From: Octopus sinensis
Taxonomy: Eukaryota
Assembly: GCF_006345805.1 (NCBI RefSeq)
Contig: NC_043004.1
Coordinates: forward strand, 35,216,001 to 35,280,000
DNA: 64,000 bases
Direction: 5' to 3'
This document shows, in pieces, positions 4,776-60,039 of the stretch. The position numbers and the translations under genes were made by a program. Position 1 is the stretch's first letter, and every line of letters starts with the position of its first letter. The notes beneath the pieces were generated by a model. The model saw only the letters and a program-made list of their open reading frames with translations, was not told where the DNA came from and did not search any database.

Positions 4776-7700
4776 TGTGTGTATGGCGTTAGGAAGGACA
4801 TGCAGCCATAGAAACCATGCCACAACAGACAATTGGAGCCCAGACAGCTCCCCAGATGGCCAGCTCCATGTCAAACCGTCCAACCCATGCCAACATGGAA
4901 AACGGATGTTAAACAGTGATGATAACGATATATTACAAGTTCTTCAGTGATGTTTTTATAACTGATTTGGTTTACGTAAGACAGTCAGTTAGAAGACTTT
5001 GGCCGTGTAGAGTATAAACCACTGAGTATCTTAACTGTACGTCATACAAAGAGATGCATGTTTGAAGATACAGTGACATGCCCAAATAAGTATGTAAAAT
5101 CTTTATTCAAAAACCAGGAATTCTGAAAAATATATGTACTAGCATCAGAAAATTCTCCATTATTGAACTTAAAGTAGCTGATCTTCATTGATGCCATAAC
5201 TTTTTATGTGATAAATCTTACAAACAATAGTTGTTCCATACTAAAATTCTATACTGCTTCATCTTAAAATGACTTCAACTTTCAGGCATTCATTATTTTT
5301 GTCGGTACCAATTCCTATTGTTTTGTAGGGAGAGAATGCCATACACTGTTTGGTATGACTAAAGTAAAAAGACTGTTCCAACCGAGATAAGTTAAATGGT
5401 TCAAAGCAGACAACAAGAAGTTGAAAATCTCTTCCATTCACGCTGGTTACCAATATGTTCGATGAATAGATGTTGAATCAAAGTTGTTCAAAGCAAGATT
5501 CTTTCATCAGAAGCCACATTCTTGGAGAAGAAATGTAGCACTAAAAAGAGAAAAGTAGTTTATGTCTAAAATGGAGATAATTGCTTGCATATCTTATATG
5601 CTTGAACTCCTGTAAACATGAAAGATTCCTGTTTTATCCATTGCATTCATTGTAAAGGGTATCATGAGAGAGAAATATGCCACTATGCTTGCAGAAATAT
5701 ATTTTTTTAAACTGTTCTATGAAATATAGATGTCTGTCAACCTGAAAGAATATCAGGGCGTAAAAACTTAAAAGCTTGATTTCATAGCTCTTTTTATCTG
5801 ATTCTATAATTGGACAATATAATAGGAGAGAAAAATATTTTTCTTATGGTAAAGGGACATAACTGACAGAAGTTTTCTCTAGTAAAGAGTGTTCGTTAAA
5901 ACATGAAGTTTCCACTCTCATAATATTCTTTGAATTGATGCAAACAGCCAATAGAATACAAGAATTCTGGTAGTAATTTTTGTGATAACTGACATAAAGA
6001 AATTTTCACACGTACTAACTCTCACATACACACACATATATAGCTAGTATATTTTGTCAGTAAGTCTTAATGCTTGGTATGTAAAAATAAGATACTTGTA
6101 ACCTAATAAGATGAAAATATAGTCAGAGTTGTTTCCCTTGATCTTCCTGAGAGAAATTATCATTAGATAATTGTCATTTTTTTTTCATATGCATGTAATT
6201 TCTAAAGATTGAAAAATGTTGTTCTGTTAGTGCCTTATCCCTAGTTAACTGTGTGTGTGTGTGTGTTTATTACTACAGTTTAAAAAAATGATGATGATAT
6301 CCCTATGTCTACAAATTCCTGACAACAATTTATTCTGGTTCCCTCTGGCACATCTTAAGAAGGTTAGGGTCACGGTTGGGGTTTTTCTAATTAAATTGCT
6401 TGTCTAATTAAAATTAGCTGTTGAGGAAGAATAGGAGAAAGAGGCTTTCTCTGAATAGAAAGCCAGTCAATTGCAAGATTAACTCCAAGGAACCACTGGT
6501 ATTCATTTTCAGCTCAGTGTAATGAAGCAAGTAAAACAAATGTTTTTACTCAAGGATAAAATACATGGAAAATGGTTGTTATTTTGAGGGACAGACTCAA
6601 AAGTTGTACATTTTATAAAAGTTAGCCATTCAGAGTTCAGTGTGTTGAGCCATTATTGTTTTCTAACAGCTTCTCAGGTATTCCCTAGTCATTAGAATGA
6701 GATGAGATAATTTGAGAATGGAGTGGAAGGAATGATGTGATTAGAATGATACCAAAAATCTCAAGAATTCCAATGCTGTGAACAGTTTTCCAGAAGGACT
6801 TTTAATGACAAATATGAAAATGGTTTCATTGATGCAAACAACAGGTAATCTAATGCTCAGGTCTCAGACAATTTGTCATCAGTCTTCTTGCTAATTGCAA
6901 TCTAGATTTACAGGTGCTAAAGAGACAGCAAAACCAAAGAAGTTGTGTAATATCTGAGAATTATGATGAGTAAAGTGCATATTATTAAATGGAAACAAGG
7001 AGCAGAGGGCTGGTTGGATGGATCCTGAAAATATTGAAAGCAAGCAAACAAGAAATAATGTTGCTTCCATGGGTGTTGCTTCTTGTTCTCAGTTGTCAGG
7101 ATTACAGCTGCTGTTTTTGGTCTCCTCGTAGTGCCAAGATAACTTTTGAATTTGCAATGTCCTACCAGTGTTGTGCAACTAATTATTTTAAGTTGCTTCA
7201 TCAGAGTATCAACCAGATCATCAGATGCTGACATACACCGCTGGCCACACTGTGCTTCCAATTCTGTCTTGATCATATCATTCTTTTCTATCTTGATACA
7301 AATTGTTTAACTAAATCATATTCATGTCATCATGGAGGCCTTCCAAGTGGCCTTTTTCACTTTCTTGGATACCACCACTCTGCAACTGCACAGGTCCACT
7401 TGTTGTCTGTGAACTTTGCAACTTGTCCAGTCCAGTGGAACTTGTGCTTTTAGTATGCTGCTATCACATCATTCCTTCCACTCCGTTCTCTAATTATCTC
7501 ATTTTAAATACATTCTCAAAGTTGCTTCATACTGGAGAATAATACTACTGACTTTTCATGTGGGATGTTCCATATTTAGATTGCTTCTTTGGCAATTAAG
7601 GCTTATATATGAGCCTCGAATTAGACAGAGACTTAGGAGTGACCTAACTTACACTTTCAACAAGTTTGGCCTGAAAATCATAGTTTCCATCAACATAGCA

Positions 7701-8996
7701 GTAATGCCAAAAGGTCTCTGCTCAAACTCTGAAGATCTAATGAGGATGACAATCAGAAAAGTCAAAGTAATTGTAAAGTGAAGAAAAATTGCCTAATTAA
7801 TGTTGACTCTCTAATTCAAAATTGCCTCATTAAGGGTGATTGTCTAATTAAAAATTGTTTGTATAATGGTAACTGTCTAATTAAAATGATCATCTTTACT
7901 TCTAAAGTCACAATCCTAAACTAAAGTTAAAAGTCTGAAAGAAACAACACAAGAAAATCAGCTTTGGTCAGCAGAGACATGACCACAGACAATCCAACCA
8001 CAACGTTCTTGTCCCTTTAGATCTCTAAAGAACAAGCTGTGACTTGTTGGAATTTGATTACTCTTTCTAGCAAGTCTAGCAACCAAATAGAGGCTTCTTT
8101 GCTGATCCAAGTGAAGATAGCCCTGACAGATGTGTCTTCAACTATGAATCTACATTCATGTTAGATAAATAAAATGTACAAATGCCGTACTTGAAGATAG
8201 ATGTGTAGGTTCTTGTCGAGGGTTATCGAAGAGATTGCAGGTTCACAGTCTGAAGAATCAAGATCTTTGTAAACCGAGCAATTTCAACTTTGTAGAAATG
8301 GAAAATGATTCCTCATGCAGCATTTCAATATACTGCAGACCAAGCAATACCAGAATGTAACCATATTAAAATGCTGTTCTAAGAAAATATTCTCCATGTT
8401 AAGTAAAGCTCAACTGATCTCCAGGAAGTAAACAGCACTCATTTGATCTCCATGCTAAATGTCAGCAATGTATCTCCTTACCATTTTGAAACGATTTCTT
8501 CATTGAAAATGTCATTTCATGAACACCTGACCATTATGCTTTAATAGACATTAATAACAGGTAAAGTACACACACACACACACACTCACATGTGTGTATA
8601 CACTCTAGCTCAAGTATTATAAACTATATATGAAGCAAAATAAAGCTGCAACTCATTCATTAAAAATATGTGTGTGTGTTCTTTTATTCTTTTACTTGTT
8701 TCAGTCATTTGACCGTGGCCATGCTGGAGCACCACCTTTAATCAAACAAATCGACCCCAGGACTTATTTTTTGTATGAATCACACTTATTCTATTGATCT
8801 AGAAGACTAGTCTGTCAAAGCATGGCTGTATGGTAATAAGTTTGCCTCCCAACTACATGGTCCTGGTTTCAGTTCAGTCCCACTGAATAGCACCATGGGC
8901 AAGTACCTTCTACAATAGCCTTGTGTTGACCAAGAATATTCAACAGATAGAAATTGAAAGAAAGTCATGGAATATACATATATATATATATATACT

Positions 8997-9297
8997 GTGT
9001 GGAGGCGCAATGGCCCAGTTGTTAGGGCAGCGGACTTGCGGTCATAGGATCATGGTTTCGATTCCCAGACCGGGTGTTGAAAGTGTTTATTGAGCGAAAA
9101 TACCTAAAGCTCCACGAGACTCCGGCAGGGGGTGGTGGCGATCCCTGCCATACTCTTTCACCGCAACTTTTTCTCACTCTGTCTTCTGTTGGCCTGCTCG
9201 CTTAGCCAGTGGGGTGGCGTCATTTGAAGGCTAAAACAATGTGAAGCGCATTGTGACCAGCGATGTGTAACATCTGATAGCCTGGTCGGTCACCATG
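8997..9297 (+). mobile_element. tRNA-derived SINE family S4
   Basis: A box tggcccagttgttagg and B box ggtttcgattccc followed by a GC-richer body; flanked by (TA)n. Confidence 0.75.
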
Positions 9298-9523
9298 ATA
9301 TATATATATATATATCAATAATACAGTGATTGTTTCTTGTCAGGAACAAAAAGATTAATAGGACTGCTATAGAAGTGCTCTATTGAAAGAGACAAATATA
9401 TCAAACTAAAGTTATTGAACAAACAAATGCAAGGTCATCCGCATAGCATTTCATAATTCGAACATTTAATCATAGAATATACATATAAACATCCCGCGAG
9501 ATAGTTAAACAATGATGATGATG

Positions 9524-9892
9524 ATATGGTGTGTTGTGAATCTATGGAAAGAAATCCATAAAACTTAACAATTTTGATAAAAATGGAGAAGAGAATGTGT
9601 TAAAATATATAAGAGAATTTTAAATCATGCAGACGATCGTTTCGTACAGAAATATAAAAATCATGCAAATTCATGGTTGAACAAAATTAATTTAATTAAT
9701 TATATATCACAGTGATACTTAATTCAATTCAATTCAACCATGATTTTTCATGATTTTTATATCTCTGTACAAAACGATCGTCTGCATGAATTAAAATTCT
9801 CTTATATATTTTAACACCTTCTCTCCTCCATTTTTATCAAAATTGTTGAGTTTTAAAGGGATTTCTTTCCATAAATTCACAACACACCATAT
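9524..9892. repeat. ~370-bp imperfect palindrome (fold-back)
   Basis: atatggtgtgttgtgaa...(centre tatcacagtgata)...ttcacaacacaccatat; the arms pair over most of their length. Confidence 0.9.
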
Positions 9893-10339
9893 ACAAGTAT
9901 TATTTTCATATTTGCAATTTTACGCCAGTAAGCTACCAGCAAAATATGAAGAATCTATATTAGAAATCTTTTTTTTTTTTTGAAACCTCGAAATTAAAGG
10001 ATGAGTCTAATTCAACCTTTTTACACACACCATACATATATATGTATGTGTGTGTGTGTGTGTGTCCTCCACCACTGCTTGATAACCAGTGCTGGAGTGT
10101 TTACTTCCCCGCAACTTAGCAGTTCAGCTAAAGGGAATAACAGAATAAGTCGTAGCCTTAAAGAAAAGAATAAATACTGGGGTCAATTCATTCAATGAAA
10201 ATCTTTCAAGGCGGTGCTCCAGCTTGGCCACTGTCTTATGACTGAAACAAATGAAAGATAAAAAGAGATACCAGAGATTTCCAGAGAGTTTTTCACGAAT
10301 GTAAAAGATATCATATTTCCTTTACACAAAGACAAGATT

Positions 10340-10665
10340 TCTGTGCCAGTGACACGTAAAAGGGCACCATTTGAGCATGATCGTTACCAGCGTCGCCTTA
10401 ATGGCACCTGTGCCGGTGGCATGTGTAAAAAGATTCAAGTGAGGTCATTGCCAGTACTGCCTGACTGGCCTCCATGCCGGTGGCACGTAAAAAGCACCCA
10501 CTACACTCTCAGAGTGGTTAACGTTAGGAAGAGTATCCAGCTGTAGAAACTCTGTCAGATCAAGATTGGAGCCTGGTGCAGCCATCTGGTTCACCAGCGC
10601 TCAGTCAAAATCGTCCAACCCATGCTAGCATGGAAAGCGGACATTAAACGATGATGATGATGATG
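10340..10665 (+). mobile_element. Repeat family S3 (RTE-type 3' tail / SINE with internal tggcacgtaaaaagcacc repeats and (GAT)n tail)
   Basis: ttaggaagagtatccagctgtagaaac...ccaaccatgctagcatggaaagcggacattaaacgatgatg. Confidence 0.85.
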
Positions 10666-11748
10666 GTTTGTAGATTAACAAATTATATTGAAATAATAAA
10701 ACATTGACAGTAATCACTTAAAGATAACTTTTTTCTGTAATTCTAAACCATTGTCGGTAATTTTATAATAAATAAAAAAATAGGTCTATAATAATTCATG
10801 AGTTTCGAACTACTTACGGACGGACACTTTATGTTAAATAGTGTCAGATTTAGCAAGGGAATTCTTTTTAGTAGATACTTGGTGGTAATTGAGAAGAATG
10901 GTTTACTTATCACATCCCTGATAAATGACAATAGATTTCTAGTTCAACTGTTATGTCCAAAAAATATATGAGGTTTTAATTGAGAAATTGTAAGTTTAAT
11001 TTCATTTTCCTTAACCTTATAAAACTATAATGAGTTTGTGTATGTGGGAAGCATTTTATATTGATTAAAATAAATTGCCAGATTACATTCAATTTGGTTT
11101 AAAGTATTTCATCAACAATAAACGAGGAGAGTCTTTAATATTTGAAAGATTTGTTGGAGATCATCAGCTAATTTATTTACTAATAACAACCTATTAAGAA
11201 TATCATTTTTCTTTGAATTAATTTTGATTTCTTTTATTGAATTTCATACATTTTAATTACTATTATTCTCAACAAAGTGTCATAAATATTACATTTTTTC
11301 TATTATAGGTAATTAAGGAAATTACATAGATATTGATAATTATCGAGTCATTCATTTATGCTGGAACAGTCCCTAGTGTTGAGTTACGATTTATAGAAGA
11401 TATATCTTCCAAGAATATAATCTAATATCTTGGTGCTAATCTATTGTCTCAATCTCATTTTCATCATCTTATAAATGTTTATCAATTCCAATATTGATTG
11501 GTTTTGAAACAATATTAAATATTAATTTTATCACATTCAATCTGAAGTAGTTTCTCCTGATCTTAAAAAGTGATTAGCAAAACATGTTTTTTAATCCCTA
11601 ATTAAAATAAGTTAGGAATGAATTTCAACAAATTTAATGTAATAATGAAATTGAAAATACTTGTCCTGATAGCCATTTCAAACACACAAACAAGCTCTTG
11701 TTTTGTGATACAATATATTATCATCCGATACAATGAAATATTGATTCT

Positions 11749-13967: not shown

Positions 13968-14285
13968 TGTGAAGGAGCATGGCTTAGTGGTTTGGGTATT
14001 TGGATCACAATCCTAAACCCATGAGTTCAATTCCCAGCAGTGTCCTTAAATGAGAAGCTTTATTTCATGTTGCTCCAGCCCAGTCAGCTGGCAAAAATGA
14101 GTGGTACCTGTAATGCAAAGGGTCGTCTTTGTCACAGTCTGTATCACACTGAATCTCCCTGAGAATTATGTTAAGAGTAAACATGTCTGTGGAGTACTCA
14201 GCCACTTGCACATTCGTTTCACAAGCAGACTTTTCTGTTGATCAGATCAGCTGGAACACTTGTGCGGTGGTGTCGAATTGTTACC
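13968..14285 (+). mobile_element. tRNA-derived SINE family S5
   Basis: tggcttagtgg...gagttcaattccc...cagctggcaaaaatgagt...ctgtggagtactcagccac; copies at 33076 and 53197. Confidence 0.8.
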
Positions 14286-14292
14286 AGACTAC

Positions 14293-14574
14293 AGTTCCAT
14301 ATTTAAGAGAAGAGGAATTATTTACATTTGATGGATATTTGTCCTCATGGTGTAGTGGTTAAGAGCACAGGTTACTAAACCCAAGATTCTGAGTTCGATT
14401 CCAGGCAGTGACCTGAATAATAATAATAATAATAACGTTGAAAAATACCTTAGGAATGAGAACCCAAGTTCAAAACTTCCCCAAGTCACCTGATGAAGGC
14501 TGAAGGGTATATCAGCCGAAATGTGTTAACAACAAACGAGATGAGGACAAATATCAGTCAAATGTAAATAATGT
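14293..14574 (+). mobile_element. Family A unit: inverted tail fragment + tRNA-like head + (AAT)n + hammerhead
   Basis: 14293-14348 is the reverse complement of the family's 3' tail; 14347-14574 matches the Penelope terminal repeat at 58091-58436. Confidence 0.85.
14484..14527 (+). ncRNA. Minimal type-I hammerhead ribozyme (family A), small deletion in stem III
   Basis: cac-CTGATGA-a-GGCTG aagggtatat CAGCC-GAAA-t-gtgtt. Confidence 0.65.
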
Positions 14575-15469
14575 TCCCAGACTAGTTTTATAGCATGCCA
14601 ACTGATGGCAGCACATGGTTGTGTACGCGGTGAAAGCAAGCAGTGACCTTCATGAGGCAGTATGTTGAGTGACAGCCTGTGTTTACTTCACAAGTTGTGA
14701 AATTTGTGTTTATGTTGTCACATATATGCTGTAGTCTGTGATTTTGTCATGGAGAGGAACAAAGAACCAAAGTGAAATTTTGAATTAAACTAGGAAAATC
14801 AGCTAGGGAGACAATATTATGCTTCAGCAAGCATGCAGCAACGAGGCTATGGGTTGCACACAATGTTTTGAGTGGCATGGGTGCTTCAAAAATGGAAGAA
14901 TGTCCCTGGAAGACGATGAACGATCTGATGGACCTGCAAGGAGTGGCAACATCAGAAATGTGGTATTGGGCAGCAAGAATTCATTCTTCAGGGCCAGACC
15001 ATCAATCAAGAGTTCTTCTGCAACATTTTGAAGCATTTGAGGGAAGGAATTTGGTGAAAGCGATCAGATCTGTGGAGCAAGAATTGCCTCTTCATGACAA
15101 CAATGCACTCTGTGACCGAGCATTCTTCATTCATGAGTTTCTCACCAAAAACATTGCTATTGCTTCTGCACCCAACCGATTCACCAGATTTAGCACCTGT
15201 AGACTTCCAGCTCATCCCCAAGATAAAAATGCAACTCAGCTTAAAGGTTGTTGTTTTAACACTGTTGTTGAGATCCAGAATGGATCGCAGATGGTCCTTG
15301 ACTTGCTTACATAAAATGACTTCCAGACCAGATTCCAAAAGTGGCAGGCAATACTCTGGAACCAGTGTATTGCTGTGCAAGGTGACTATTTCAAAGGAGA
15401 TGATTTTAAAACTTAGGTAAATAAGTTATATTTTAATAAACATAACTAGTTCGGAACCCTTTTGATACC
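14575..15469 (+). mobile_element. Internally deleted, decayed mariner transposon
   Basis: HTH-like QCFEWHGCFKNGRMSLEDDERSDGP and catalytic remnants LHDNN and HPTDSPDLAPVDF; terminal gttcccagactagtt / aactagttcggaac inverted pair. Confidence 0.85.
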
Positions 15470-36900: not shown

Positions 36901-37480
36901 AACAATAACATTTTCTCTACTTTTTGTTTAAGAAAGCATCTGCTTTATACGAATTTCTGAGGAAAATGTTTAAAAGCCCTGGAAATGAAATTCCAAAGTC
37001 AAAATTTAATAAAGATATCTTGCATAGGAGCAAAAGGATCTGAAGATCATTAAAATGATGACAGAAAATATAATAACCATGGTGACATATTTGTTTTTAA
37101 TGGTTTCACCAGAAAGAGAAGGGCAAAGTTCTTTATTCTGAAGGAGACTGAGACTAATGTGGAGAAAATAAACTAAAAAACATAATTGATAGTTCATTCT
37201 CAGATTGAAAACCTGGATATAAGGCTTATAAAAGCACAGATTCAGTTAAATGTACCCAAGAACCAGGTGGTAGTTTTAAACCAAGCTAATGGATTATGTC
37301 TACCCCTAAGAACAGGTACAGTCACAGCTGATGGGCTTATGTGCCACCTGCACGGGAGCACGTAAAAAGCACCATCTGAACGTGGCCGATGCCAGTGACC
37401 CCTGACTTTCTCCCGTGTCAGTGGCATGTAAAAAGCACCCACTACAGTCTCAGAGTGGTTGACATTAGGAAGGGCATCCT

Positions 37481-37688
37481 GTGGGCATATGGCGTAGTGG
37501 TTAAGAGTATGGGCTACTAACCCCAAGATTCTGAGTTCGATTCCAGCAAAATATACCTTAGGAATGAAAAACTAGGTTTGAAATTTCCCCAAGACACCTG
37601 ATGAAGGCTGGAGGGTATATCAGCCGAAACATTGTGTTAACAACAAACAAGATGAGAACAAAATCCGTCAAAATGTAAATAATGTACT
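37481..37688 (+). mobile_element. Family A standalone unit (tRNA-like head + hammerhead) inserted in an S3 repeat
   Basis: gggcatatggcgtagtggttaagag...ctactaa...gagttcgattcc...accttaggaatg...HHR...aatgtaaataatgta; S3 sequence on both sides. Confidence 0.85.
37592..37638 (+). ncRNA. Minimal type-I hammerhead (family A)
   Basis: gacac-CTGATGA-a-GGCTG gagggtatat CAGCC-GAAAC-att-gtgtt; the inferred consensus GAAACGTT has a CpG-type change here. Confidence 0.75.
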
Positions 37689-38720
37689 TAGACAAAAAAA
37701 AATCTAACCCATGCCAGCTTGGAAAGTGGACGTTAAACGATGATAATGATGAGATTTCACTATAAAAACTTGGATCAACCCAACACTATGGTGGAATCAA
37801 TTTTTCCAAAGGTGCTGTAGTTTGTGATCAAACCCAGAACACACTATTCTTAAACATAAAGTCATATCCTAGTCACATTATCTTGATTCTAGCCAAAACT
37901 GGTGCTTTTTATTTATTTATTATTATTATTTTTTTTTTTGGCATCCAAAGCAGAAATCCAGAAGATGTCATAGATTAGTCAATGACATCTCAGCTAGTTT
38001 TCAGATGAATATCTGAAGAATTCTAAAGAATTAGAAAATTCCTGAAGGATATTTGAGTTCACTAACTTTAACGTCTAAATAACTTTATTTTCTCCAAAGC
38101 TAAACAAAACAAAAAATTACATAGGTTTATATTCATGCATCTACATAAATTTATTATGCATATAGTTTGGCAAAATTAATTCTAGAGGAAATTTTCCAAA
38201 CTATTAACCCCCTTATTTAGAGCTTCTATTAACAAATTTCAACTGGTTTGATCTTTAATTATCGTTAGGTATCACCTTTGAAGTTAATAGTCCCAAAGTT
38301 TTAATTATTCTAGAAACATCTTCCAGAAACTTATAATCATTTATTTTATTGTTTTAAATTTAATTTTCTGAGACAAATTCAGTTGGATTTTATTTTGCTT
38401 TAGTTTTTGAACTCAGATATGTAACCAGAGCAACTTCTTTCACAGTTGGATACTTTGCTGTTTTTTCTTTTGCTATGTTACATCCAATTTCCCCTGCTGC
38501 AATGGTTAGCAACATTTTTTTTATACATCTCTACAGTTTCACAGTCTTAGAATAATCATATTAAAAATAATCTTTCTAACACTGACCGTTCAGCTGTGAA
38601 ATAGAAGAAAAACCTGTGGACAGTGTGTTCACTAGACTAAAGTGTGTGGGCAGAGTTTCCTCTTCATAAGAAGTACAATACACTGACTAAATACTACTAC
38701 TACTAATAATAATAATAATA

Positions 38721-53196: not shown

Positions 53197-53515
53197 ATTG
53201 GCATCGGTTACAACAATGAGGGATCCAGTTGATCTAATGAAAGGAAAAGCTTACTCAAAAAAATGCAGGTGGCTGAGCACTCCACATACCATTGATGTAG
53301 TTCTCTCAGGGAGATTCAGCACGACACAGAATGAGACAAAGTTGGCCCCTTTGAATTACAGGTACCACTCATTTTGACCAGCTGAATGGACTGGAGCAAT
53401 GTGAAATAAAGTGTCTTACTCAAGGACATAATGTGCCATGGGGGAGTAGAACTCATGACCTTATAATCTTGAGCTGAATACCCTGACCACTGAGCCACAC
53501 ACACACCTTCACTGG
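53197..53515 (-). mobile_element. SINE family S5 nested in an S1 copy
   Basis: Reverse-complement match; S1 halves at ~53025-53195 and ~53580-53740. Confidence 0.8.
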
Positions 53516-55431
53516 TGGACACACACCCACACACAAGGACGCGTACACATGCACACACACACACACACATATATATGATCGGCCTCTTTTCCTTTCCATC
53601 TAACAATTCACTCACAGGGCTTTTGTGAGCCCAAGGCTATAGAAAAAGACACTTGCTTAATGTGCCACACAGTTGGACTGTACCCAGAACCATGAGGTTG
53701 GGAAGCAAGCTTCTTACCATACAGCTTCCCCTCCGCCTATATATATATATATATATATATATCTACAGCATATATCATTATATTGAATGAACCAACAGAG
53801 TCCACTGATGGGTTTTATTGAACTGAATAAGAACCCATAGCAGTCATCGATGAGGGAGTAAAAGATAGCAGGATATATCGAGACTAGTTACCTTCGACTT
53901 TTGCTTATTATCAAAAGAATCAGGAGTAGTGGAGACTTTGGAATAGAAAGAAAGTCATTGACTGTCTGTCTGTAACCATTCCACTTTCTTTATGCCATTA
54001 AAGGTTTGGCAAAAAAATATAAATATGACAATGGTTTCTTCCCATTTCCTGTATTACTAGTTTTGTTCCAATATTTAAGTCTTCTCATCTCAGTAAATCT
54101 ATTTACTTCAGGCTCCATGTTTAAAATGCAACATTGTTCATGGAACTAAAATCACAACAACAACAAAAATAAAACAAATTAAGAAAATAAAGTAGATTTC
54201 AACTGTGTAAGAAATTCTTTCTAAACTTTCATATTTAAACATGTCTGAGACCATTTTTTTCTAAAATTTTGTTTTTTAACCAGATTCATGTTTTCTTGCA
54301 AAGTATTCTATCATGAATTTCAAAATGGTAAGTGAATTCTTGAGAAACAGAGAGGCAAAATGACTCAGATGCACATCTTGTTCCAAGTTCATATTACTTT
54401 CCAGATTATTTCTTTTAATTTCCTTGGATTCCGGATCTTAACTTATTTCTTTTAAATTACAATGGAAACCCCAAGTAATTTTAACATTCATATTGTGACA
54501 TCAAATATAACTTTAGCAATTCTATTTTCATTTCTTTTACAGTTTCTGCTATTTATGTCTTGGATTTGAAGAACTTTCCAACAGATATCAAAAAGACTTT
54601 TTTCTCTGTATTCTCTTTCCTTAAAGACGTCACTAATACATACATACATTCATGTGTGTGTGTGCACACGCATATATATATATATGTTTATGCATATATA
54701 TGTATATATATATATAAAATATATATATATTTATATATATATATATACATACATATATATGCACACACATATATGTATATATATACATACACACACACAT
54801 ATATAACATTTATACACATATATTTGCATATAATCATTTTAAATGCCTACATATGTACACACACCCACATTTATGAGATACACATAAATACACATCCACA
54901 TATAATCAGATATATGCATATATGGGCATACACTTATTCGTGTATGTACGTTTATACATACACATGCATAGATATACATATGTACACACATAAACACACA
55001 CACACACACACACACATATATATGTGTGATTATATTATATTTCTAATGCTTCTGAAGATAGCAAGCATATACTTGTGCTTCAGTACCATATTTGATGTGC
55101 TTACAATGTGATATGACATTCATTGATTTATTACATCTGTTATGGCCTGAGGCTACTTCAGTGTTGGAAGCCAAATCATTTATTGATACACACTTCGGAC
55201 ATAATAATGTGAATAGTCTTACTTATTTTGACATTTTCTCCACCTTACTGCTCACAATCTGTCTTCCTTTGTTTCTTTCTTTCACTCTAACAATCTTCCT
55301 TTCACGCTAACAATCTTTTTTTTATATCTACACTAGTTTTTGTAATATCAGACCTGCATACACACACACACATGTATATATGTGCATGTGTATACATATA
55401 TATGTGTGTGTGTGTTTGTATGTATATGTAT

Positions 55432-57660: not shown

Positions 57661-58168
57661 GAGAATGAAAGAGCCTTTATGTGGTTGTGCAACATGCCAG
57701 AAATGGTAGTCAAATTTTCTGAAACTATACCCATCCATAGATTTTGAAAATAAAACAGCTCATTGGCTAATCTTGCTGGATGAATTTTCTGAAAATAAGA
57801 TGGAATGCTCACAACTAGAATAATTGGCCTGACCTGGTGCTAATATTCCAGTAGATTATTGGCACATAAGAGTTGTGAGATCTTCTATAGCTAATTCTGC
57901 TGACAAGTTCCAGATTTGTTGCCTCTCCCAAAATCTTGAATTCAGATCTCGCAGGAGTATATTTTACTTTCCATCCCCAGTTGACAAAGGAATGAATAAT
58001 AAGGGTTTCAGATTTTGGCACAAGGCCAGCAATTTCAAGGAGGATTTAAGTTGATTATATCAATCCCAGCATTCAACTGGTACTTATTCAGTTCTATGTT
58101 TAAGAGATAAAAAATTATGTACATTTATTTACAATTGACGGATATTTGTCCTCATCTTGTTTGTTGTT

Positions 58169-58216
58169 AACACAACATTTCGGCTGATATACTCTCCAGC
58201 CTTCATCAGGTGTCTT
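58169..58216 (-). ncRNA. Minimal type-I hammerhead in the Penelope terminal repeat (family A)
   Basis: Minus strand gacac-CTGATGA-a-GGCTG gagagtatat CAGCC-GAAAT-GTT-gtgtt. Confidence 0.8.
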
Positions 58217-58361
58217 GGTGAAATTTTGAACCTGGGTTCTCATTCCTAAGGTATTTTTCGATGTTGTTGTTGTTGTTATATTATTATTATTATTATCATT
58301 ATTATTATTATTACTATCATTATTATTATTATTATTATTATTATTGTTGTTGTTGTTGTTC

Positions 58362-58435
58362 AGATCACTGCCTGGAATCAAACTCAGAATCTTGGGGTTA
58401 GTAGCCTATGCTCTTAACCACTATACCAGATGCCC
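58362..58435 (-). promoter_or_regulatory. tRNA-like segment with Pol III A/B boxes inside the Penelope terminal repeat
   Basis: Family consensus tggcgtagtgg (A box), anticodon-like loop ctactaa, gagttcgattcc (B box); acceptor stem imperfect, so not called as a tRNA gene. Confidence 0.7.
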
Positions 58436-58464
58436 GTGGGCAATTATAGAGTGAATTTTAGGGC

Positions 58465-59690
58465 TTATAATTCCAATATTCTCCTATCCTTCCTTAATAC
58501 CGATTCCATATGCTGTTCATATCTACACTTGGTCTGCTTAGGAGGTTGTTGTGTCCTAGCATATGGGCTGCTTCTTTTAATTTTCATATTTTCTTGTGGT
58601 GTTCTCTGTCTATTATTTTAACTTCATCCCACAGGGGGAAGTGGTCTTCATTTTTCCATACATGATCAGCTATACCTGATTTATCAATATCTCCCCGTGT
58701 CACAGCTTTGTGATGTTCCTCTACCCTTATTTTGAGGGGGCGGCATGTTTTGCCTTTGTATAACCTACTACAGCTGCATGGGATAGAGTACACACAGTTC
58801 TTAGTTATATTCTCTTCTACTGGTGGTTTTATTCGAAGGAGATATTTGCAAAGTGTTGAATTACTTTTGAATACTGTCCTGATGTCATATGGGGCACATA
58901 TCTTTTGTATCTTTTCGGAGAGGCCTTTCACAGAGGGTAGACAGACTGTGGACAGTTTATCGATTTCATCCTCTCTTTTCTTCATAATTGGAGTGGAGAG
59001 TATGCTTTTGGGGTAGTTGTTGCTTAATAGATTGTTACTGAACTTGATCATTTCTTCGTGGTGGGTATCACGATTGTTACTTATATTCATTGCTCGATGT
59101 TTTAGGTGCTAAGCAATCCCTCACTTTACACTGTATGGATGGTGTGCATTGAGGTTGAGGTATCATCCAGTGAAGGTCGGCTTGCGGTATACGGATGTCC
59201 TGAATCCATACCTGGTGCGTGTTATTAATACATCCAGGAATGCTAGCTGTCTTTTTCCTTTTCTGTTGTGAACTATATGGATGGCTTTATTGAGTTCACA
59301 TGATCTAACAGCACTTGGACATCTTCCTGGTGGGGCCAGAGTATGAAGGTGTCATCAGCATATTGTAGCCATAGGGTTGGTTTTAGTGGTGTTGATCCTA
59401 AAGCCAAATTCTCAAAGCATTCCATGTGTATATTGGCTATTACTGGTGATAATGGTGAACCCATAGCTAAACCCTCTTGTTGTCAATATATATCAGTGTC
59501 CATACTGAAGTAGGTAGTTTCTACACAGAAGGTCAACATTTCCATCAAGTTTCTTATTAGTGTACTAGTGAATTCTTTTAGATAGGTATCTGTCACTAGT
59601 TTTTCTTGAATCACCGATAGTGCTTCACCAGTTGGGACTTTGGTGAACAGACTTATCACATCTAGACTCACCATCACGTTGGACTCAGTG
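58465..59690 (-). pseudogene. Penelope/Poseidon-type reverse transcriptase + GIY-YIG endonuclease, with stops and frameshifts
   Basis: VSLDVISLFTKVP, GLAMGSPLSPVIAN, YADDTF, FLDV, VYRKPT, then CVYSIPCSCSRLYKGKT..RVEEH..SGIADH. Confidence 0.92.
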
Positions 59691-59764
59691 GGAGTATCTT
59701 TGGTGTAGTGGTTAAGAGCACAGGCTACTAACCCCAAGATTCCGAGTTCAATTCCAGGCAGTAA

Positions 59765-59795
<31 letters not shown>

Positions 59796-60039
59796 GATTA
59801 ATAATAATAATAACATCGAAAAATACCTTAGGAATGAGAACCCAGGTTCAAAATTTCCCCAAGACACTTGATGAAGGCTGGAGCATATTCGCCATCTACT
59901 TCAATTACTGCTTCCCATTTGCTTGGCAGACGGTCAGACTGTCATTTAAAGATGTTTTTTGTTATATATTGTTGTTTTGGTTGAATAAAATTTGTTGTAA
60001 AAACCTGTAATAATAATGCACCAACCCAATATAATATTT

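Follow-up and report, generated by a model that had tools for sequence, protein, structure and literature searches.

Penelope-like elements (PLEs) with a C-terminal GIY-YIG endonuclease (EN+), such as Penelope of D. virilis and Poseidon PAc of Anolis, carry a single ORF for reverse transcriptase and endonuclease (RT-EN) with a hammerhead over the ORF start (PMC11167929; PMC8557442). They form partial tandems with a promoter region in the pseudo-LTR (pLTR) and insert with an inverted, 5'-truncated partner and a one-sided tail of 30-40 nt. The insertion pattern described in PMC8557442 matches the inverted arm and one-sided tail found here. Priming by PAc is internal, downstream of the hammerhead that covers the start of its ORF, and PAc can do without cleavage in vitro (PMC11167929). 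The promoter of D. virilis Penelope is TATA-less and LINE-like and lies in the 3'-UTR part of the pLTR (PMC2377424). The octopus family shares the single ORF, the position of the hammerhead, the partial tandems, the inverted partner, the tail and the pLTR promoter region, and it is by these features that it is placed with the EN+ PLEs. In contrast to them, its pLTR consists mostly of a tRNA-derived head followed by (AAT)n, and the 5' ends pile up there. The gap that matches the D. virilis promoter region holds little but the tRNA head. Statements on published systems refer to the accessible portions of the cited texts.

The schistosome SINE-like retroposons Sm-alpha and Sj-alpha combine, within a short repeat, a promoter of the Pol III type with a type I hammerhead downstream of it (PMC6765202, PMC8490949), and Sm-alpha is a precedent for this combination. 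In schistosomes, units are released from multimers by the ribozyme cut and the descriptions available include no ORF-bearing parent, whereas the octopus units serve as the terminal repeat of an element with an ORF. As here, animal non-LTR retrozymes (PMC7229834; bioRxiv 10.64898/2026.07.22.740005) consist of short units that are non-coding, carry a type I hammerhead and are related to PLE pLTRs. While they are defined by tandem arrays and circular RNA, the octopus copies are mostly single or inverted, and the available main text of the bioRxiv study does not contain 'tRNA', 'Pol III' or 'promoter'. The TRIMp3 elements Cassandra, Helenus and Ajax (PMC10886601) likewise hold a small-RNA-derived Pol III promoter within the terminal repeat, proposed to have come from a SINE insertion. 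TRIMp3 are non-autonomous LTR elements, whereas the octopus head sits in an autonomous element, and the same paper argues that autonomous TRIMp3 partners must use Pol II. Short non-autonomous Penelope elements were described in butterflies, with no tRNA head mentioned in the accessible text (bioRxiv 10.1101/596502), and neither 'hammerhead' nor 'ribozyme' occurs in the accessible text of a repeat paper on O. vulgaris (PMC13282606). No autonomous PLE with a tRNA-derived head was found in a literature search that ran outside Repbase, Dfam and subscription journals.

The focal copy and its relatives in the window

The window, i.e., the whole stretch of 64,000 nt of Octopus sinensis DNA that was analysed, holds four related stretches at 37483-37687, 14347-14574, 58089-59700 (minus strand) and 59701-59885. 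Among the features below, the head and hammerhead of the focal copy were assigned by sequence, and the two parts of the S3 repeat by alignment and BLAST against the other copies in the window.

37352-37479, plus strand: S3 host repeat, 5' part
37478-37482, plus strand: junction CCTGT, like the CpG-decayed centre of the fold-back palindrome of other copies
37483-37546, plus strand: tRNA-derived head, +1 to +64, with A box at 37490-37500 and B box at 37535-37543
37547-37687, plus strand: body, i.e., the end of the 5' UTR and the first codons of the PLE ORF, with ATG at 37564 and the frame broken; it stops at the short 3' stop point, and the (AAT)n spacer is deleted
37593-37638, plus strand: minimal type I hammerhead motif with helix I GACAC/GTGTT, core CTGATGA and GAAA, and helix II GGCTG/CAGCC
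37688-37752, plus strand: S3 host repeat, 3' part
14292-14574, no strand assigned: two-arm insertion with an inverted tail arm (14292-14348) and an arm from head +7 to the body (14347-14574)
58089-59700, minus strand: autonomous PLE copy, 5'-truncated, with RT-thumb-endonuclease ORF, stop, head (58435-58364), (AAT)n, body with hammerhead, and a 35-nt tail
59701-59885, plus strand: inverted arm of the insertion at 58089-59700; it begins at head +8/+10, abuts RT sequence and ends inside hammerhead helix II

An earlier note on this DNA, made from its letters, had placed the start of the focal copy at the 5' end of a tRNA-like block within an interrupted S3 repeat. Both points hold, as head +1 is at 37483 and other S3 copies of the window match both flanks. 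Between the flanking parts, S3 has lost roughly 55-70 bp, and no target-site duplication (TSD) was found at either flank. The junction CCTGT at 37478-37482 may be what is left of a former inverted arm. Missing from the copy is the stretch from head +66 up to and including the (AAT)n tract. Both of its boxes, A at +8 and B at +53, are full. No sibling with the same deletion was present among 40 scored candidates, and the first TTTTT on the 3' side lies 318 nt downstream, in the flank. Rfam matched neither a tRNA nor a hammerhead on the window and on 37400-37760, and ARAGORN found 0 tRNA genes in the 64-kb window.

The hammerhead had been described as kept, which is correct for CTGATGA, GGCTG..CAGCC and GAAAC at 37598-37630 and does not extend to helix III, whose palindrome is disrupted in the alignment by G>A at 37631 (G16.2 is now A). 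The predicted cut of the focal hammerhead falls after 37633, and MFE folds did not separate the consensus from the focal copy. The body also carries the start codon and the first ~40 codons of the element's ORF, frameshifted here, contrary to the view that the copy has no ORF sequence. The focal copy is a fragment that has decayed and is probably inactive.

The copies at 14347 and 59701 begin within the first bases of the tRNA head, as had been noticed, with starts at +7 and +8/+10, respectively. Neither is a free-standing unit, each being one arm of an inverted two-arm insertion. The insertion at 14292-14574 lies between two copies of an 11-bp repeat that differ at one position (14281-14291 and 14574-14584). 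A smaller second cluster of 5' ends was observed at head +4..+9, around the 6-bp palindrome CATATG (e.g., L086, L094, L062 and the window copies at 14347 and 59701). Another tRNA-headed repeat family occurs in the window at 13971-14270 and, on the minus strand, at 53316-53636.

The parent element and its tRNA-derived head

The parent consensus, built from 86 long copies at a depth of at least 10, has a single open ORF of 835 codons. The start of this ORF, at body position 23, precedes the hammerhead core, and its stop lies 31 nt before the head, giving the order stop, 31 nt, head, (AAT)n and ORF start with hammerhead. In the real copies L365 and L361, 360-385 codons are open from the ORF ATG. 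RVT_1 matches the parent ORF in Pfam with an E value of 3.5e-10. The C-terminal GIY-YIG endonuclease is recognised by motif only, without a Pfam hit, and Pfam returned nothing on the ORF pieces of the window or on the N- and C-terminal pieces of the parent protein. The ORF end is present in 50 of 52 distinct ORF-anchored loci, with the head directly after it in 45 of these 50. Loci with the 5' part of the ORF numbered 30, and the head lies upstream of it in 7 distinct ones, of which 3 begin at the head and enter the ORF and 4 extend into upstream ORF. These 7 loci represent the partial tandem that forms pLTRs in EN+ PLEs. Since the ORF starts within the body and the head follows 45 of 50 ORF ends, the unit is the element's own pseudo-LTR.

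The hammerhead consensus has the core, an extra base after A9, G10.1-C11.1 and a palindromic 15.2-16.2, which makes it a minimal PLE type for which cleavage is predicted. It matches the features of minimal PLE hammerheads listed by Cervera and de la Pena in the accessible part of PMC4209133. An exact body 22-mer occurred 9045 times in the 2.72 Gb of genome searched and was present in 47 of 106 sampled bodies, which gives ~20,000 arms. A copy number from the hammerhead 33-mer was dropped as biased by locus naming, and the 22-mer estimate was retained. Searches of the octopus genome for a control PLE family returned only the tRNA-headed family. No relatives with DNA context were found among viral contigs. 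Metagenome contigs gave four distant relative loci with 29-33% identity, and a tRNA-like head after the ORF was absent in one of these four on inspection by eye. Proteins with 65% identity exist, without DNA context.

The family head is identical to tRNA-Arg(TCT) at 46 of 72 positions (z ~8 against shuffles), the best of 27 distinct genomic tRNA sequences, and the consensus A and B boxes lie at the canonical tRNA positions +8 and +53. In box positions and tRNA-Arg identity, it resembles the tRNA-related head of a SINE. No cloverleaf was found in the head consensus by relaxed ARAGORN or by folding. Despite the failed ARAGORN and Rfam calls, the head is tRNA-derived, as judged from its sequence. 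Another octopus tRNA-headed repeat scored slightly higher against the family head than tRNA-Arg(TCT). The PLE head may derive from a SINE and not from a tRNA gene, since the head of the repeat family at 13971-14270 and 53316-53636 aligns to it about as well as real tRNAs do.

Several further observations concern the genomic setting of the family. One near-full-length copy sits in a segment duplicated at least 4 times with 97-100% identity, three times on unplaced contigs (L123, L124, L125, L136). Some copies with the ORF start stop 260-500 nt into the ORF (L350, L352, L354, L364, L367, L369), which suggests more priming sites or deletions. The (AAT)n tract is a recurrent target of later insertions (L064:2590-3220, L085:2590-3290, L134/L152, L072, L092, L102). 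One element of ~560 bp sits in this tract at three loci, and the tract of L102 contains an inverted pair of a different tRNA-headed repeat.

Ends of the copies and the insertion footprint

The 5' ends along the PLE were collected in two samples, both from the first ~110-140 Mb of contig C1 and both anchored on exact matches, which favour well-kept copies. Sample 1 comprised the first 100 of 1997 exact hammerhead 33-mer matches, all on contig C1. The body holds 18 of their 5' ends, and the AAT tract or its edge another 23, some of these in arms with internal deletions. Within the head, 22 ends lie at +9..+53 and 6 at +4..+6, while the head start (-7..+1) has 23 and the remaining 8 are further upstream. 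The head-start share is ~23 of 100 hammerhead-bearing arms, most of the others being ordinary truncations further 3'. Of the 31 arms that reach the 5' end of the head, 23 stop at the head start, a count that is hammerhead-anchored and independent of sample 2.

Sample 2 comprised 99 of the first 100 among 3221 head 24-mer matches, reduced to 98 arms by dropping one near-identical duplicate. In this sample, 73 arms stop at -9..+1, within 11 nt of +1, so that copies begin at the head as in a SINE, while 25 continue upstream. The density of ends is 0.124 per nt at the head start versus 0.0086 in the next 33 nt and 0.0033 overall upstream (14-37 times), and 3.5-9 ends were expected at the head start versus the 73 seen, 38 of which do not use a palindrome. 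The 37 arms extending beyond -12 have scattered ends with a median of -196. Microhomology makes the exact end positions uncertain. The plot of 5' ends that the earlier note had proposed therefore shows a sharp peak at tRNA +1, also beyond the window, and not the random ends of truncation. Read-through RNA also exists, as 25 of the 98 arms and 4 of the 7 ORF-start loci run upstream of the head.

The 3' ends of the arms fall at two fixed points ~30 nt apart, ~55 or ~85 nt past the hammerhead cut site. A direct repeat with at least 10 matched bases accompanies 30 of 51 two-arm insertions (null 2%), with a TSD of ~11 bp. When 9 broken ones are left out, 42 two-arm insertions have both 3' ends, and the tail is present on one arm only in 41 of them. 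This one-sided tail sits on the head-start arm in 18 of 36. The inverted, 5'-truncated partner and the one-sided 30-40-nt tail known from EN+ PLEs are both seen. Unit ends set by hammerhead cleavage of multimers, as in Sm-alpha, were not found, the 3' ends lying well past the cut. Tandem hammerhead units as in retrozymes are not the rule either, since the focal copy is single and tandems are rare among the loci examined (L027, L086, L095). In L027:1501-1940 (G000:C24:17902660-17903099), three 150-bp hammerhead bodies lie head-to-tail, while L095:2045-2594 has two whole head-plus-body units in tandem and L086:7927-8238 has two bodies. These three tandems are retrozyme-like and could permit dimeric cleavage.

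Origin of the RNA 5' end and status of the short unit

As the ends pile up at +1 and the insertions bear the Penelope footprint, head-initiated RNA copied by PLE enzymes is the best reading. With moderate confidence, the unit is taken as a solo pseudo-LTR, left by reverse transcription that was primed within the repeat and ran to the end of an RNA starting at the head, likely at a Pol III start. On tRNA genes, transcription by Pol III begins a few bases 5' of +1. From this position and from the places of the boxes the Pol III start is inferred, and the tRNA-derived head is likely the element's own Pol III promoter. The proposal that Pol III transcripts were retroposed by PLE enzymes is thus supported in part, for the copying of head-starting RNA by a PLE (pile-up, inverted arm, one-sided tail and ~11-bp TSD), while Pol III itself stays a likely component.

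Each full RNA starting at the head would have two priming sites, one per pseudo-LTR. Priming in the upstream pseudo-LTR would yield a 250-nt run-off cDNA ending at the head, i.e., the unit, and priming in the downstream one would yield truncated copies carrying the ORF. The free cDNA end at the head could snap back on the 12-nt micro-palindrome at -7..+5, giving perfect hairpin insertions, or could become linked to another cDNA or the target. The focal copy would be one such arm, which later lost its spacer and perhaps its partner arm, with part of S3. Neither end of the unit would be defined by hammerhead cleavage. Ordinary RNA-seq reads on L138 (three runs under a related label, ~6% of each; 7,569-11,044 reads) cover both strands equally. 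Coverage changes two-fold at the head, and the head start shows inverted joints but no pile-up of starts. In L138:1900-3000, places with T>C (47-64) exceed those with C>T (35-37) in the RNA reads; editing of hairpin copies is possible and inseparable from copy divergence.

The peak could also arise without a promoter role, if long cDNAs snapped back or annealed at the best self-complementary site straddling +1 and later asymmetric deletion left head-start arms. The native inverted repeat TGCCC-AC-GGGCA (-7..+5, 12 nt) indeed spans +1 and is the top-scoring one in the 3' 450 nt of the element. Snap-back at this site accounts for 35 of the 73 head-start arms, and internal deletions are common in two-arm copies. 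Of the 38 other head-start arms, 23 are joined elsewhere on the inverted arm and 15 to unique flank. Exact genome-wide matches at the head numbered 528 for the fold-back junction (~420 places, since one variant was counted on both strands) versus 517 for the native junction. In contrast, the second-ranked body palindrome GAACC-CA-GGTTC, with the same 5+2+5 geometry, gave 24 fold-back versus 9045 native matches and is used ~300-fold less than the head site. In ORF-bearing insertions, of the 11 partner arms that extend to the head, 4 end at +1..+8, facing unrelated positions of the ORF (by eye). Of 31 candidates for a TSD test on solo copies, 5 had no body in range and were dropped. Among the remaining 26, 6 retain a 10-13-nt direct repeat abutting the head (null 1.2%), and these TSD-bearing copies start at -2..-4. 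As the other 20 lack a TSD, the focal copy among them, some solo copies may be palindrome relics. The templates really ended at the head, however, and the peak is not purely a structural artefact, which makes an account by self-complementarity without a promoter unlikely.

A real 5' end at the head could instead stem from a coincident Pol II start or from RNase P-like processing of a longer transcript. The known PLE promoter is internal, TATA-less and similar to LINE promoters, the ORF needs translation, which is easier from a capped RNA, and 17 of the 38 ends without snap-back share 0-1 nt with the native sequence upstream, which fits a cut at +1. Such an origin is nevertheless considered improbable. 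Little non-tRNA sequence remains between stop and start for another promoter, and RNase P cutting is downgraded because the head consensus has no true cloverleaf. The ends moreover spread over -7..+1, as the native 2-nt spacer persists in most snap-back centres and at least 3 upstream nt persist in 14 of the 38 others, which counts against a cut at +1.

The earlier note had proposed the unit as a candidate SINE partnered with a PLE. A true SINE would have short copies transcribed by Pol III, re-mobilised in trans by the PLE protein and forming a lineage of their own. The unit has promoter boxes, a priming region and, for the focal copy, a terminator in the flank, and head-start arms outnumber ORF-linked arms ~3 to 1. 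Some full arms contain a GT spacer, as expected if the second arm of the palindrome is transcribed. Head-start arms have an intact B box in 46 of 73 cases and ORF-linked arms in 19 of 53, a difference that is confounded by sampling and misaligned rows. It is not counted as evidence, since those CpGs of the head that lie outside the box show a difference of the same direction. However, the 73 head-start and 53 ORF-linked arms share one consensus without any diagnostic position between them (best p 0.004 over several hundred tests), although a small subfamily could be missed in a sample of this size. Their median non-CpG divergence is 4.6-4.7% versus 5.4-6.2%, and the two classes are of the same age. 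Shared non-CpG variants per pair, from the 94 of 112 rows kept, amount to 0.52 within head-start arms, 0.58 between classes and 0.70 within ORF-linked arms. Pairs sharing at least 3 variants numbered 138 versus 77 in the permutation null, an excess not confined to one class. A lineage of its own was thus not found, and the deletion of the focal copy is without a sibling among the candidates scored. Nor is only the 3' part common to the partner, as the whole unit, head included, is the partner's pLTR and the same in kind. Head-start RNA is not limited to the short unit, since 3 of the 7 ORF-start loci begin at the head and run into the ORF. A true SINE is accordingly given little chance. The family is a PLE with a start of tRNA origin, and its solo pseudo-LTRs have the look of a SINE.

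The 2.65-kb sense consensus contains no TTTT (chance 0.006 by base shuffle and 0.025 by codon shuffle; 0.007-0.19 by model for an earlier consensus draft), and the autonomous element itself may therefore be transcribed by Pol III. Phe codons are TTC-biased with 14:4, versus 79 T:69 C at other two-fold sites (p 0.02), and the four distant relatives have 6-11 such runs per kb-sized stretch. Against purging of TTTT, GGGG is likewise absent from the sense consensus (chance 0.03 and 0.28), and LINE fragments in the window are likewise poor in such four-base runs (2 in ~1.8 kb). It is a tentative idea, more doubtful than not, that an autonomous PLE swapped its promoter for a captured tRNA or SINE head and came to be transcribed end-to-end by Pol III, with TTTT purged, uncapped RNA translated and upstream priming giving thousands of SINE-like solo repeats. 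If true, a Penelope parent would here be giving rise to a nascent SINE.

Should the head be the promoter, the family would represent a Penelope element under a tRNA-type promoter and a route from a PLE to SINE-like repeats. The fixed RNA 5' end opens a test of how the inverted arms and one-sided tails of PLEs form, for which the ~20,000 arms would provide a record of run-off, of snap-back at a 12-nt palindrome and of a short arm paired with a long ORF arm.
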